A DNA stretch of 64,000 bases, taken from assembly GCA_043803105.1 (NCBI GenBank), contig JAZDKJ010000006.1:364222-428221 (forward strand), read 5' to 3'. The notes beneath the pieces were generated by a model. The model was not told the origin of the DNA, ran no database searches, and was given only the letters and a program-made list of their open reading frames with translations. Position numbers and translations under genes: made by a program. Of the stretch, positions 7,560-41,331 are shown piece by piece. Origin of the DNA: Candidatus Woesearchaeota archaeon (GTDB taxonomy: Archaea > Nanobdellota > Nanobdellia > Woesearchaeales > JAZDKJ01). Within the stretch, counting starts at the first letter, position 1; every line of letters begins with the position of its first letter.

Positions 7560-7690
7560 AAGCTTTTTTCCTTAGGAAAAAACCTTGGAAAATATGTTTT
7601 TGCCAAGGCAAAAACGCTGCCTTTAAGGCAGCTAAAGTTGCGAGCTGACTTTTCAGCTCAGCTATTGAGCTACTCAGGGATAATTCAATG
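7560..7690 (-). repeat. Structured element directly upstream of tRNA-Tyr: a near-copy of tRNA-Tyr positions 1-25 followed by a conserved hairpin and three further hairpins
   Basis: Minus strand has TCCCTGAGTAGCTCAATAGCTGAGC, matching the tRNA-Tyr 5' region TCCCCGAGTAGCTCAATGGCTAGAGC at 25 of 26 positions. This is followed by GAGCTGA-AAAG-TCAGCTC-GCAAC, then GCTGCC-TTAAA-GGCAGC, CCTTGG...CCAAGG and TTTTTTCCT-AAGGAAAAAA. Confidence 0.45.
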
Positions 7691-27717: not shown

Positions 27718-28371
27718 TCAACCGAAGAAATCTATAATGCTCTTGCGTGTTATCCTTCTTATCTTCCTTTCTATCTCCTCAGCATTTTCAAATTCCTTTT
27801 CCTTTTCCTTGAAAACCCTTGAGTGATAGAGGTTGCTCTTGGTGTTTGCCTTGTATTGCAGCTTCTTATGCAATAGTTCGTGATACATTACATAATCAAT
27901 TGCATCATCCCCGACCTTTCTCAGTATAGGACTTATGCTTATAGTGTTTGTGTGAAAGTTATAGCTACCCAATGTTCTCCTTGAGCCTTTTCCGAACAAG
28001 AGATTTGGTGCCTCCATCAATCCATAGAAATACTTTTTGTTAACCCGAAAGAAAGAATCAACCAATATTGGGTCCATCCGTGTTGCCGGAACCACTGTTC
28101 CAAGGTTTTTGATAAAGTGGTGATACAAGTCGATGTTAGTGCTTTTTGCAGGCTTTTTGAAAACCTTCACGAGCAGGCTCTGTACCAACCCTATCTGGAT
28201 GTCTTCGCTCACAGTCTTCCATTTCGAGCTCAATTGCATACTCAAGCTGCTTCTAGAAAATCTTACCCTTGCATTGTACGCCTTAAGCCGTCCGTATTCA
28301 AGCTTTGTTTCATAACCGGCAAGCTCTTTGTGATAGAGTCCTGAAAATGCTGCTTTGATTAGGTCGCTCAT
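27718..28371 (-). CDS. DUF45/YgjP-like metal-dependent hydrolase (HExxH)
   Basis: C-terminal IDYVMYHELLHKK is an HExxH zinc site placed as in COG1451. Confidence 0.5.
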   Translation of the reverse strand: MSDLIKAAFSGLYHKELAGYETKLEYGRLKAYNARVRFSRSSLSMQLSSKWKTVSEDIQIGLVQSLLVKVFKKPAKSTNIDLYHHFIKNLGTVVPATRMDPILVDSFFRVNKKYFYGLMEAPNLLFGKGSRRTLGSYNFHTNTISISPILRKVGDDAIDYVMYHELLHKKLQYKANTKSNLYHSRVFKEKEKEFENAEEIERKIRRITRKSIIDFFG

Positions 28372-29468
28372 CCCTGCAATTCATACCTTAGGATTGCTGC
28401 CACTTTGCCAAGGTCTCGCAATTGTACCCCTTCTCTTGTCTCTGTGGAGATTATCTTTACTTCGCTTCCCATCTCCTGCGCCTTTTTGTCTAGTTCTGTC
28501 ACAGTGTTCTCGTCAAGCGCGTCTGACACAAGTAGTGTGTTTACCATCCCTATCTCCAGGGCATGGCGTACTTCCTTTAGCCCATAGGCGACCATTCCTT
28601 GCTTTGTTGCTAGTAATTCAAAGAACCTTGCCATTATCTTTTTCTCGTCAGCTATTTCCTCATTTGCTAGCACATCCTGGCTTTTGTCAAGAAGTTCCTG
28701 AAGCCCGAAATCCCCAGTATAGGATAAGTCCTTTATAGCGATTATCTTTTTCTTCACCTCGTTTGTGATAAAATCTCCGTCAACAAACTCATATTTTGTT
28801 GGCCCAGGCCCTCCCACAAGTATTCCCTTTATTTCGCTCTTCCCAAGGAATGCGTCTTTTGCCATCTCCCCAATCTTTTGGTAGAATTCCTTCGCTGAAT
28901 CCTCCCTTATCCTCATGAATCTTGCTGCTGATTGCCCTCCTGCCCTTGTCTTTCCAGGAACGTTTGATTTGGCAGAAGCGATTGGTATTATGCTTTTTCC
29001 TTTGAGCATTGCCACATCTCCATCGCGCCTATCCAAGACTATCATACCGAAAGCGTCCTTGATATCAGTCATGTCCCTCAGCAAGTCAAGCACGAATTCC
29101 TTGTCGCACCTGTAAATCCTTGTTTTAAGCGGCTCTGGGGGCTCAATGCTCCACACCCTGAAATCTTGCCCTCCCTCCCGTTCTGATACGTTTCCGGAAA
29201 AAACCGCCAATCCATCGGGAGGTGTTCTCTTGAAAAGCTTAAGGTGCTGTATCATTTTTTCCAGCGCATCCTGCACATTCTTGCGTGTTGCTGAAGACTT
29301 TATGTTTGACGCAGTGCCCTGCTCCTGAGAAAGATGGTTTATTATCTTGTTCAAGTCATAGTCTGCTGGCACGTAAACGCTCACAAGCTCAGTGTGCCTA
29401 CCCTTGTATTTTTCCAGTTCCTTCACAAACTTCTGAAGGTCATATCTTTGTTTTGCAGTTAATGTCAT
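28368..29468 (-). CDS. prf1: Peptide chain release factor aRF1
   Basis: Both the NIKS motif (TASNIKS) and the GGQ motif (RAGGQSAARF) are present. Length is 366 aa. Confidence 0.9.
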   Translation of the reverse strand: MTLTAKQRYDLQKFVKELEKYKGRHTELVSVYVPADYDLNKIINHLSQEQGTASNIKSSATRKNVQDALEKMIQHLKLFKRTPPDGLAVFSGNVSEREGGQDFRVWSIEPPEPLKTRIYRCDKEFVLDLLRDMTDIKDAFGMIVLDRRDGDVAMLKGKSIIPIASAKSNVPGKTRAGGQSAARFMRIREDSAKEFYQKIGEMAKDAFLGKSEIKGILVGGPGPTKYEFVDGDFITNEVKKKIIAIKDLSYTGDFGLQELLDKSQDVLANEEIADEKKIMARFFELLATKQGMVAYGLKEVRHALEIGMVNTLLVSDALDENTVTELDKKAQEMGSEVKIISTETREGVQLRDLGKVAAILRYELQG

Positions 29469-29572
29469 GATTCAAACTAACTTATCAGGGTATTTAAAAA
29501 TTGTGTTGTGTTCATGCCTGCAAAAAGCTGCCTTGCCAGTCAGATTGACAGGCTCAGGCAAAAAGCATTAAC

Positions 29573-29580
29573 TTTATAAA
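29573..29580 (+). promoter_or_regulatory. Putative TATA box (TTTATAAA) upstream of the tRNA-Pro leader
   Basis: TTTATAAA is preceded by AAAAAG (BRE-like), about 55 nt upstream of the pseudo-5' copy and about 130 nt upstream of the mature tRNA-Pro 5' end. Confidence 0.35.
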
Positions 29581-29637
29581 TCACTGGTCGGCTCTGTACA
29601 ATAATCAAGGAGCAGTACACTTGACCTTACAATCATT

Positions 29638-29710
29638 GGGGCTGCGGGGGAGCTGCGAAGTCAGCTCGCACCTTCGTGGGACATAAAGTCCCCCTGACAT
29701 CACAATCAAT
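29638..29710 (+). repeat. Leader element of tRNA-Pro: an imperfect copy of the tRNA-Pro 5' end followed by a conserved hairpin
   Basis: GGGGCTGCGGGGGAGC matches tRNA-Pro GGGGCTGTGGGGTAGC at 14 of 16 positions. This is followed by GAGCTG-CGAAG-TCAGCTC-GCACC, the same hairpin family as in the tRNA-Tyr leader, and then a GGGAC-ATAAA-GTCCC hairpin. Confidence 0.45.
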
Positions 29711-29827
29711 GGGGCTGTGGGGTAGCTTGGTCTAGCCTATCTGGTTTGGGGCAATGCAAAAAACCAGATGACCCCGGTTCGAAAGTTTTATAAAAGGCTG
29801 ATTAACTCGAAAATCCGGGCAGCCCCA
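29711..29827 (+). tRNA. tRNA-Pro (anticodon UGG) with two putative introns: the canonical 37/38 site (12 nt) and a site after the T-loop (about 30 nt)
   Basis: GGGGCTG-TG-GGGTAGCTTGGTCTAGCCTA-TCTGG-TTTGGG[GCAATGCAAAAA]A-CCAGA-TGAC-CCCGG-TTCGAAA[GTTTTATAAAAGGCTGATTAACTCGAAAAT]CCGGG-CAGCCCC-A. Confidence 0.6.
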
Positions 29828-29925
29828 CTCATGTTCGTGGTTGGTCTTCCCAATGGGAAGACGCACCCTTTAGGGTGCCGATGCAGTCAACAGGCATTTC
29901 TGTTGATCCGGGCCGCCCCCACTCA
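29828..29925 (+). repeat. Trailer element of tRNA-Pro: three hairpins followed by an imperfect copy of the tRNA-Pro 3' end
   Basis: ATCCGGGCCGCCCCCACTCA resembles the real 3' end ATCCGGGCAGCCCCACTCA. The intervening 74 nt folds into TCTTCCC-AAT-GGGAAGA, GCACCC-TTT-AGGGTGC and CAACAG...CTGTTG hairpins. Confidence 0.4.
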
Positions 29926-29977
29926 GTTTTGTTGGCTAAAAACATGGGAAAACGCTGCACAAAGGGCAATTCGCAAA

Positions 29978-30286
29978 ATGGGAGAAAAACAATTCGGTTC
30001 AATCAAGAGGTTTGGAGCAAGGTACGGTCGTACTGTCAAACATAACCTCGCAAAGATAGAGGAAGGATTAAGGAATTTCCAGAAGTGCCCGTACTGTTTT
30101 GCAGTCAAGGTCAAGAGAGTATCTTCTGGAGTGTGGCATTGCCGCAAGTGCGATGCCAAGTTTACAGGCAAGGCATATATTGTTTCAGGCAAGCTAAAAC
30201 CTATTGTCCTTGCAAAACCTATCGAGGAAGTTGATGAGGAGATGTCTTTAGGGAAAAAGAAGGAAAAGGTTTCTGAGGAAGAATGA
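29978..30286 (+). CDS. rpl37ae: 50S ribosomal protein L37Ae (eL43)
   Basis: RFGARYGRTVKHNLAKIEEGLRNFQKCPYCFAVKVKRVSSGVWHCRKCDAKFTGKAY includes the zinc ribbon. The start is the Met at 29978; the ORF-track N-terminal extension overlaps tRNA-Pro. Confidence 0.85.
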   Translation: MGEKQFGSIKRFGARYGRTVKHNLAKIEEGLRNFQKCPYCFAVKVKRVSSGVWHCRKCDAKFTGKAYIVSGKLKPIVLAKPIEEVDEEMSLGKKKEKVSEEE

Positions 30287-39855: not shown

Positions 39856-40989
39856 ATGGATAACAGAGCAAAATTTGAACTTATAACGAGAAATTTAGAA
39901 GAAGTACTAACACCTGCAGATTTAATGAAACTCATTGAAAATGATGAGCCTTTAAAGCATTATATTGGTTTTGAAATAAGTGGTAAGGTGCATCTTGGAA
40001 CTGGACTTATGTGTATGTCCAAAATTAAAGACTTCATGGATGCAGGTGCGGATGTTTCTGTGTTTCTTGCTGACTGGCATAGTTGGATTAATGATAAACT
40101 TGGTGGAGACAGAGAAGTTATCAAAAAAATTGCCGTCGGATATTTCAAAGAAGCGATGAAGGCTAGCCTTCTTTGTCTTGGTGGTAATCCTGAAAAAATA
40201 AGATTTGTACTTGGTACAGAACTTTATCACAATAATGACGATTATTGGGCAACCATGATTGATGTAAGTAAAAATACGACTCTAGGCAGGATGACTCGGA
40301 GCATTACAATCCTTGGAAGAAAAGAAGGGGAGGGAGTTGATTTTGCAAAATTGATCTATCCTGCAATGCAGGTTTCAGATATTTTTGTTCAGAAATTGAA
40401 CATACCTCATGCAGGAATTGATCAAAGGAAAGCGCAAGTTATTGCAAGAGAAGTTGCTTTAAAAATGAAAGTAAGTCAAATTACTGATAAAGAGGGTAAT
40501 AAAATTAAACCCGTTGCCCTGCATCATCATCTGTTACTAGGTCTTGGCAAACCCCCGGTATGGCCTGTTCCTCAAGATAAATTACAGGATTTATGGTCAT
40601 CAATGAAGATGAGCAAGTCCAAGCCGGACACTTGTGTTTTTGTTCACGATAGTCCTGATGAAATTAAAAGAAAGATTGCAAAGGCATTCTGCCCTGAAGG
40701 TGAAACTGTGTTCAATCCAGTACTTGATTGGGCTAAATATTTATTGTTCAGAGAGACGACTGATGAACTTATAGTAAAAAGGCCTGAAAAATTCGGTGGA
40801 ACTGTTATATATACAACTTACGAAAAACTTGAAAAAGATTTTGCAGACAAAAAAGTTCATCCAATGGACCTTAAAGATTCAGTTGCTGAAAGTTTAATTA
40901 AACTACTTGAACCTGCAAGAATCCATTTTGAAAAACCTGAAATCAAAAAGACGTTGGATCAGCTTAACAAGCTCATAACCACAAGGTGA
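39856..40989 (+). CDS. tyrS: Tyrosyl-tRNA synthetase (archaeal type)
   Basis: 377 aa with a HIGH-like region (GKVHLGTG) and a KMSKS motif (KMSKSKP). The overall pattern is archaeal TyrRS. Confidence 0.9.
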   Translation: MDNRAKFELITRNLEEVLTPADLMKLIENDEPLKHYIGFEISGKVHLGTGLMCMSKIKDFMDAGADVSVFLADWHSWINDKLGGDREVIKKIAVGYFKEAMKASLLCLGGNPEKIRFVLGTELYHNNDDYWATMIDVSKNTTLGRMTRSITILGRKEGEGVDFAKLIYPAMQVSDIFVQKLNIPHAGIDQRKAQVIAREVALKMKVSQITDKEGNKIKPVALHHHLLLGLGKPPVWPVPQDKLQDLWSSMKMSKSKPDTCVFVHDSPDEIKRKIAKAFCPEGETVFNPVLDWAKYLLFRETTDELIVKRPEKFGGTVIYTTYEKLEKDFADKKVHPMDLKDSVAESLIKLLEPARIHFEKPEIKKTLDQLNKLITTR

Positions 40990-41220: not shown

Positions 41221-41331
41221 TGATAGTTTCTTGGGAGTCCCAAAAAACTTCAAGTTTTTTGTGACGAAAGGCGACTGAAAGGAGTGTAAAGGTGCCAGCT
41301 GACTTCTCAGCTGAGTAGCACTACAGCCCCA
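41221..41331 (+). repeat. Repeat unit U4 (TGATAGTTTCT ... hairpin ... GAGTAGCACTACAGCCCCA)
   Basis: Begins TGATAGTTTCT as U2 does. It contains a CAGCTGA-CTTC-TCAGCTG hairpin, related to the tRNA-leader hairpin family, followed by GAGTAGC as in the tRNA-Tyr 5' region. It ends CACTACAGCCCCA. Confidence 0.4.

Follow-up and report, generated by a model that had tools for sequence, protein, structure and literature searches.

Archaeal tRNA genes can carry non-canonical introns in the D-loop or T-loop, which are cut out at bulge-helix-bulge motifs, and intron transposition has been proposed for Thermoproteales (for review, see PMC4090602). Split tRNAs of the Nanoarchaeum type are encoded as halves with complementary flanks of 12-14 nt, with no intact gene. 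In bacteria, the tandem repeats downstream of E. coli tyrT consist of 178-bp units, and every unit closes with ~19 nt from the 3' end of tRNA-Tyr. Integrative elements of archaea (SSV1- or pNOB8-type) leave a direct partial copy beside an intact tRNA, and for a tRNA-Thr fragment of Caldiarchaeum subterraneum a link between integration events and intron gain has been proposed (PMC3293823). Here, we describe a tRNA-Pro gene in a 64,000-nt stretch of contig JAZDKJ010000006.1 from a Candidatus Woesearchaeota archaeon (hereafter the window). The gene is bracketed by two hairpin-bearing units, both pointing inward, which carry imperfect copies of its own ends. We favor, with moderate confidence, the reading that these flanks are products of a family of small hairpin elements without a protein gene, which insert and duplicate at the ends of tRNA genes and stack there. 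The element measures ~55-130 bp. Its constant end is a hairpin, h1, with a 6-bp stem, the loop AAANGY and the tail RCAMC(TT), followed by one to three variable hairpins and an A/T-rich spacer.

The tRNA-Pro(UGG) gene (29711-29827, plus strand) lies in a 510-bp spacer between the genes for aRF1 (28368-29468, minus strand) and L37Ae (true start 29978, plus strand). In the leader, on the upstream side, a pseudo-5' end, T' (GGGGCTGCGGGGGAGC, 29638-29653, plus strand), copies tRNA positions 1-16 with C8 and G13 and is identical to the genuine 5' end (GGGGCTGTGGGGTAGC, 29711-29726) at 14 of 16 positions. The first-pass annotation had recorded this copy; the direct repeat to which it belongs (D1, 29614-29654 versus 29687-29727) is longer than was noted, extending over 41 nt at 80% identity with a spacing of 73, and is composed of 24 nt of 5' flank plus the first 17 nt of tRNA-Pro. 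T' adjoins h1 (GAGCTG-CGAAGT-CAGCTC with tail GCACC, 29650-29672, plus strand), the conserved core of the element, with AGC common to both. Behind h1 lie a second hairpin, h2 (GTGGGAC-ATAAA-GTCCCCC, 29676-29694, plus strand), assigned by folding, whose sequence varies between copies while the structure is kept, and the spacer TGACATCACAATCAAT (29695-29710, plus strand), which is duplicated 5' flank. The loop of h2 includes a weak A/T box (ACATAAAG, ~29681-29688) ~23-30 nt before tRNA-Pro that might act as a promoter. A TATA box (TTTATAAA, 29573-29580, plus strand) stands upstream of the whole unit, as reported earlier, and is now separated from the mature 5' end by 130 bp; co-transcription of leader, tRNA-Pro and trailer from this box is plausible. 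The segment that begins 28 nt past the box, ACAATAATCAA/GGAGCAG (29597-29637, plus strand), resembles flank plus tRNA start and continues as AGTACACTTGACCTTACAATCATT, a match to the 3' part of the next unit. Compared by eye with three ACAATCAWT/GGGG junctions, it may represent an older, decayed unit, an assignment we make with low to moderate confidence.

On the downstream side, the trailer holds a reversed element (29828-29905, minus strand) made up of an h1 variant, a linker, h2, a third hairpin and a spacer. The h1 variant (CAACAG-AAATGC-CTGTTG, 29905-29888, minus strand) was recovered by the structural scan and folds, as do h2 (GGCACCC-TAAA-GGGTGC, 29879-29863, minus strand) and the third hairpin (29862-29843, minus strand), after which comes the spacer (29843-29828). 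In plus-strand coordinates, the hairpins occupy 29843-29862, 29863-29878 and 29888-29905, which bears out, with small coordinate corrections, the earlier description of three hairpins followed by a copy of the tRNA 3' end. This pseudo-3' end (ATCCGGGCCGCCCCCACTCA, 29906-29925, plus strand) reproduces 29813-29831 apart from one substitution and an added C; it takes in the last exon and the adjoining 5 nt of 3' flank and touches the reversed h1 without a gap, and the repeat spans ~26 nt in all (repeats D2 and D3). Read on the minus strand, the trailer h1 adjoins the pseudo-3' end in reverse complement, which makes the trailer a reversed unit of the same kind as the leader. The tail at h1 is the usual RCAMC in the leader copy and ACTGC instead in the trailer copy, and the trailer h1 is identical at 18 of 18 positions to unit 1 of the tRNA-Tyr leader at locus L114. 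The inserts at tRNA-Pro measure 57 and 78 bp, with no open reading frame (ORF) in either. In agreement with the initial proposal, pairing between the pseudo-5' end and the genuine 3' end is possible over 14 nt (86%).

The same module is present elsewhere in the window. A match to the hairpin at tRNA-Tyr had been suspected from the start, and the h1 motif indeed gives three matches, with 0.03 expected: the tRNA-Pro leader, 7659-7637 and 41313-41291 (the latter two on the minus strand). When the window was scanned for the h1 structure, defined as a perfect 6-bp stem closing the loop [ACG][AG]A.G[TC], exactly four h1 sites were returned versus 0.06 in shuffles, the shuffle control using a tail-restricted version of the scan, and all four adjoin a partial tRNA copy. 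At tRNA-Tyr (7559-7433, minus strand, detected by Rfam, with a 57-nt intron), the leader module (7637-7679, minus strand) combines T' CCCTGAGTAGCTCAATAGCTGAGC with h1 GAGCTG-AAAAGT-CAGCTC-GCAAC. It is laid out as a TATA box (7717-7710, minus strand, read from the sequence), 30 nt, a 24-nt copy of the tRNA start, h1, three more hairpins up to 7560, and the tRNA. The remaining module (41291-41330, minus strand; T' GGGGCTGTAGTGCTACT, h1 CAGCTG-AGAAGT-CAGCTG-GCACC) precedes a tRNA-like gene, X; the order at 41330-41183 (minus strand) is A/T box, 28 nt, 17-nt copy, h1, ~107 nt, X.

The tRNA-like X itself (41183 to ~41075, minus strand) has GGGGCTG as its acceptor strand and a good D-arm; its body runs into CCGGAATTCGAAA, followed by an intron-like tail, and X lies tail-to-tail with the TyrRS gene (39856-40989). 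No 3' acceptor strand matching X was found anywhere in the window, and orthologs of X, sought via the neighboring TyrRS gene, were not recovered as synteny is not conserved. X is possibly a pseudogene, or else the larger part of a split tRNA.

Hairpins with pseudo-terminal copies are widespread at other tRNAs, and the first-pass annotation's concern that the copies might be absent everywhere else can be set aside. The exact motif AGCTGNNAAGTCAGCTSGCA(CC) occurs at 72 loci in species-representative genomes and 30 loci in metagenomes, mostly in Woesearchaeota and Nanoarchaeota bins, in stretches that have no other nucleotide similarity to the window. Of 52 non-redundant cases, 34 have the stretch that stops 0-6 nt short of h1 repeated 24-180 nt downstream. 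What is copied is in most cases the 5' end of a tRNA or the complementary strand of a tRNA 3' end, and the partial copies are 17-87 nt long across the h1 cases, which rules out a target duplication of fixed length. Where Rfam matches a tRNA, the element lies either upstream on the same strand, with a copy of the tRNA 5' end (window, L023, L027, L031), or downstream on the opposite strand, with a copy of the tRNA 3' part (L022, L064, L065, L082, L085, L088, L091, L094); further loci were assigned to the second arrangement by reading (L034, L047, L050, L084, L090, L104). In both arrangements, the break point falls inside the gene, at D-loop positions 16-20 or T-arm or T-loop positions 49-60, and the copy extends outward beyond the gene end. 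No conserved target motif was seen among the ~25 junctions read.

The distribution within genomes resembles that of a repeat family. Copies in one genome have a common subfamily of downstream hairpins, as in CAYGVN01, and these subfamilies are genome-specific; copies of one subfamily abut different targets, with repeats that extend into non-tRNA flank. The targets of L003, L005, L011, L021 and L100 are not tRNAs. Non-tRNA targets together with genome-specific subfamilies point to the behavior of a dispersed repeat. In JACQXV01, the motif lies within two multi-copy families that resemble miniature inverted-repeat transposable elements and that end contigs. In family 1, h1 is located immediately interior to the left inverted repeat (TTGTTTAGC...AGCGTCGCC) in a ~230-bp miniature element with at least 15 copies (loci L001, L002, L006, L014, L026, L029, L035, L038, L048 and L054, several at contig ends), and the four copies of family 2 (L025, L046, L053, L072) have the same layout. 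Units also stack in tandem, with three before tRNA-Tyr in L114 and two each in L023 and L090, the outer units being more decayed.

The h1 hairpin is found inside tRNA genes as well. It begins a D-loop insert without any duplication in L056 and a T-loop insert in L058; after removal of the D-loop and T-loop inserts of L056, tRNA-Glu(ttc) is returned in 410 of 416 ARAGORN calls. A tRNA in the rpoD-L18e intergenic region, probably tRNA-Leu, has a reversed element with a 3' copy in L047, L050, L082 and L104 (and L090), and in L050 the copy includes the T-loop intron (67 of 70 nt identical).

Homologous empty sites, which the first-pass annotation had proposed to look for, exist in relatives. The orthologous L37Ae-tRNAPro-aRF1 loci L074/L075 (aRF1 77% identical to that of the window) and L078/L079 (76%) are without both flanks. 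The former read TATA, 23 nt, tRNA-Pro, 6 nt, L37Ae ATG, and the latter TATA, 29 nt, tRNA-Pro, 20 nt, ATG; the TATA box is kept as AACCTTTATAAA at 23 nt (L074) or 29 nt (L079) before tRNA-Pro, the trailer is missing, and the L37Ae ATG follows tRNA-Pro after 6, 11 or 20 nt. These empty relatives identify the tRNA-Pro flanks as additions in the window's lineage and the TATA box as the ancestral promoter. On contig SRR11721627_241326, the element is present at tRNA-Tyr (L115), yet the tRNA-Pro site is empty (L074), indicating that the insertion at tRNA-Pro is lineage-specific. The contig of L076 (aRF1 82%) ends within a leader that resembles the outermost part of the window leader. In L080/L081 (aRF1 73%), three tandem 51-nt units of another kind stand before tRNA-Pro (L080 1900-2520, L081 400-772). 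Each of them starts GGGRCC like the tRNA start and ends in TTCGAGCGT, and their hairpin stem differs between units and stays paired. The 5' flank of tRNA-Pro seems to collect structured repeats of at least two kinds. A module of the tRNA-Tyr leader, h4 (TTTTTTCC-N4-GGAAAAAA), recurs reverse-complemented within the tRNA-Pro T-loop intron of L078/L079; this intron is 95 nt long, with the h4 module and its neighboring bases at ~2272-2291.

Taken across loci, the element sits in or beside tRNA genes in either orientation, its h1 end facing the break point within the gene, and has two outcomes. In the first, the element is kept inside the gene and is predicted to be removed from the RNA as a non-canonical intron. 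In the second, the stretch from the break point to the gene end is doubled, so that an intact tRNA lies beyond the element and a terminal fragment at h1; as the duplicated gene end is outside the gene, the tRNA stays intact. We propose that the element is mobile, that the duplication would arise at insertion and that a putative enzyme may recognize h1 as a DNA hairpin. The stacked arrays may have formed via repeated hits or via unequal crossing-over between copies. At tRNA-Pro, one full and one decayed unit would have been added upstream and one reversed unit downstream, moving the ancestral TATA box to 130 bp from tRNA-Pro and L37Ae to 150 bp away. The tRNA-Pro would then be made with a long leader that is removed by RNase P, or from the weak A/T box in the spacer.

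A farther-reaching reading, to which we subscribe only tentatively, is that the h1 module is the active end of a new type of archaeal mobile element aimed at tRNA gene loops. D-loop and T-loop introns, terminal fragments and, after rearrangement, split tRNAs would be direct products of its insertion. Such an element may act on the single-stranded, cloverleaf-folded DNA of heavily transcribed genes, again via a putative h1-recognizing enzyme.

The described systems each share part of this anatomy. Like the transposing introns of archaea, related modules are present in more than one tRNA and in either orientation, h1 begins the D-loop insert of L056 and the T-loop insert of L058, and the duplications break where this lineage has its introns. 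Unlike those introns, the tRNA-Pro modules lie outside tRNA positions 1-73 and are not introns at tRNA-Pro, and they come with duplicated gene ends that intron transposition does not predict. No bulge-helix-bulge is evident at the leader/tRNA or tRNA/trailer junctions in a 336-nt fold, which was inspected without a dedicated motif search. The E. coli tyrT repeats are likewise tandem units beside a tRNA gene, each with a terminal segment of that tRNA, but they represent one bacterial locus and have no hairpin core common to many tRNAs and genomes. Split tRNAs of Nanoarchaeum equitans similarly show a 5' tRNA fragment followed by G+C-rich structured sequence, and the inverted leader and trailer of tRNA-Pro are partly complementary. 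Here, however, an intact tRNA-Pro lies between them, the complementarity is limited to GCACC/GGTGC and the fragments do not total a tRNA. Miniature elements of the IS200/IS605 type are also small and multi-copy, with an end hairpin adjoining the flanking DNA, but that family does not duplicate its target. The h1 element lacks defining features of integrase-generated duplications, of spliced introns, of IS200/IS605 RNAs and of split tRNAs alike.

Among eight element-bearing loci searched against Rfam, no family was found for the module and none matched HgcC at E <= 1. In the window, HgcC (RF00062) gave a weak match at 29782-29900 (plus strand) with 19.4 bits versus a threshold of 50 (E = 0.037), a match that extends from the T-loop intron over the last exon into two of the trailer hairpins. 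HgcC transcripts in Thermococcus come from transposase genes (PMC4247193). Unlike IS200/IS605 elements and HgcC, the h1 element scores below the Rfam gathering threshold and has no tnpA or tnpB nearby; no tnpA/tnpB ORF ends near the element at any locus. With the canonical element unmatched and tnpB lacking in the vicinity, we discarded an identity with HgcC or omega RNA and retain the match as a weak resemblance only. A search of the published literature found no description of the motif. Two structural candidates were also rejected: an outer tRNA nested around the inner one, formed by the pseudo-5' end and the trailer, has no 5' strand of the T-stem, and the 336-nt fold, which offers alternative pairings of the acceptor and nothing else, gives no leader-trailer stem for the splicing endonuclease to process.

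Several observations weigh against a mobile hairpin element. No integrase, transposase, TnpB or reverse transcriptase was found near ~50 element copies, and none of 25 scanned ORFs of the window contains a mobile-element domain. No two near-identical genomes that differ by an element were found, and current mobility is therefore a proposal. The duplication is unlike a classical target-site duplication, being variable and large (17-87 nt), and the element itself has a definite end on its h1 side alone. The rpoD-tRNA-L18e locus bears the element in at least four lineages, which could reflect vertical inheritance of a useful feature.

A further counterargument comes from the evolution of the tRNA-Tyr leader. 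This leader has one unit in L115 and three in L114 (RNA polymerase B'' 91% identical to that of the window), and the h1 stems found in relatives are GAGCTG/CAGCTC, GAGCGT/ACGCTC and CAACAG/CTGTTG. L115 and unit 3 of L114 have a common odd junction, TTAACGCG, and stems that differ by two compensating changes. Over 14 variants, the h1 stem is 100% paired with four of six pairs changed on both sides, most of these variants having been found by searches that demanded a hairpin; the outer stem of h2 covaries among 18 elements. Position 6 of the pseudo-5' end equals the base of its own tRNA-Tyr (A, T and C in the window, L114 and L115, respectively). Although the unit is older than the split of these lineages, its pseudo-5' end thus tracks the lineage-specific acceptor base. 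Compensating stem changes and a tracking pseudo-5' end indicate selection or gene conversion rather than a decaying scar, and a host role for the leader is a possibility.

The alternative that survives best, although we consider it unlikely, takes up this host role and regards the flanks as a functional precursor architecture. Leader and trailer would be co-transcribed and used by the host for folding, for 5'/3' maturation or for setting the amount of tRNA, either because the pseudo-5' end pairs transiently with the 3' acceptor strand or because the hairpins bind a processing or chaperone protein. The compensating changes that keep h1, the structure of h2 kept with differing sequences, and position 6 following its own tRNA-Tyr in three lineages all agree with such a role. 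So do the only strong TATA box being upstream of the whole tRNA-Pro unit and the pseudo-5' end lying at the normal tRNA distance from the box (24-30 nt) at tRNA-Tyr (window, L115) and X. Furthermore, the acceptor part is the best-conserved part of the pseudo-ends, and its few changes, compared by eye, are C-to-T and still pair with G. Nevertheless, tRNA-Pro is found without the module at 23-29 nt from its promoter in L074 and L079, and since these relatives have the tRNA without the flanks, the special precursor architecture suggested by the first-pass annotation is not needed. In addition, L091 has a T7 terminator run between tRNA and element, T5-T6 runs in the tRNA-Tyr units could end transcription ahead of the tRNA, and the pseudo-5' end of tRNA-Pro is without U8. 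The module also occurs in both orientations to the tRNA and at non-tRNA targets, which fits an element acting at the DNA level better than a host function.

A classical attachment-site scar appears considerably less probable still. According to this explanation, a virus or plasmid with a tyrosine-recombinase integrase entered via a tRNA-like attP and was mostly deleted later. A partial direct tRNA copy beside an intact tRNA is a known sign of archaeal integrative elements, and tRNA-Pro shows both the direct repeat of a tRNA segment around inserted DNA and one intact tRNA, along with empty sites in relatives, in line with the model for the Caldiarchaeum tRNA-Thr fragment (PMC3293823). Against this explanation, the insert is 55-130 bp without a recombinase, both tRNA ends are hit, and no integrase gene or fragment lies near any copy. 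The remnant is always tiny with the same conserved hairpin at the repeat, which independent deletions would not yield. The duplications run into non-tRNA flank, and one subfamily is found at different targets, which the attP/attB route does not predict. The motif is absent from phage and plasmid collections; a viral origin was dismissed, as the sole match to a viral contig is imperfect, lies in a microvirus and was judged to be chance. The idea of repeated integration and excision, raised in the first-pass annotation, is therefore supported as regards repeated insertion or duplication, given the empty sites, recurrence and stacking, and not supported as regards the integrase route, given the lack of a recombinase near any copy, the tiny inserts, the duplicated flank and the varied targets.

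Decay of two or three local tandem tRNA-Pro genes whose outer copies lost their interiors is highly improbable: the flanking copies are imperfect and a trailer stretch is weakly D-loop-like (TTGGTCTTCCCAAT versus TTGGTCTAGCCTAT, repeat D5), but the conserved h1 at the junction is left unexplained (four window sites, dozens of unrelated genomes), the joined outer pseudo-ends have no 5' strand of the T-stem while their acceptor stem pairs at 6 of 7 positions, and no intact tandem tRNA-Pro genes were seen in the orthologous loci compared. Both the integrase scar and the decayed tandem genes explain much less than does the hairpin element.

The tRNA-Pro gene itself is interrupted twice. Its exons (29711-29750, 29763-29783 and 29814-29827) are separated by intron 1 (29751-29762, plus strand) at position 37/38 and intron 2 (~29784-29813, plus strand, boundaries +/- 1-2 nt) in the T-loop. 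Removal of both inserts restores the cloverleaf: the spliced 75-nt exons yield a canonical tRNA-Pro(tgg) in ARAGORN, with cloverleaf, anticodon and conserved positions in place after intron removal, and four orthologs have the same exon sequence with inserts at the same two positions. The unspliced precursor folds into a cloverleaf with an extended anticodon helix and a T-arm with a 3-nt bulge, a 5-bp helix and a loop. Because of its two introns, tRNA-Pro is missed by both tools; ARAGORN called no tRNA in the 64-kb window, and Rfam at its gathering threshold called only tRNA-Tyr. A 172-aa ORF at 29768-30286 (plus strand), extending from the 3' part of the tRNA through the trailer and L37Ae, is an ORF-calling artefact: alignment with orthologs places the L37Ae start at ATG 29978, and the same overlong 172-aa call is on record for L080 and L081.

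Two further tRNA genes were missed by ARAGORN and Rfam. These are tRNA-Asp(GUC) at 7225-7060 (minus strand), with introns at 37/38 and in the T-loop, and tRNA-Lys(UUU) at 7044-6918 (minus strand), with three introns (D-loop, 37/38 and T-loop). Their anticodons were read from the loops; ARAGORN on approximate (one-base-off) splices returned Arg(tcg) and Lys/Stop(ttta). Both genes have orthologs in L114-L117. Upstream of the pair, within 7337-7293 (minus strand), a TTTATAAA box is followed ~15 nt later by ATGCCAATTCAATCTTTCTATG, an arrangement kept in L114-L117; this stretch could represent a small RNA or the conserved leader of an operon. Altogether, all five tRNA or tRNA-like genes found in the window carry inserts, and ARAGORN detected none and Rfam one of the five (tRNA-Tyr), indicating that tRNA counts for such genomes are unreliable.

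The origin of interrupted archaeal tRNA genes, among them split and permuted genes and genes with introns at unusual positions, has long been an open question, for which the evidence to date comes mostly from one population study and from intron sequence similarity. Among related genomes, the h1 module is seen in three states, namely absent, as an intron in a tRNA loop, and outside the gene with a duplicated gene end. With three states of one module at hand, the origin of interrupted tRNA genes becomes testable, and the h1 element may show how archaeal tRNA genes become interrupted. If it is indeed a mobile element that targets tRNA loops, it would be the source of disrupted tRNA genes in DPANN archaea that has long been sought.

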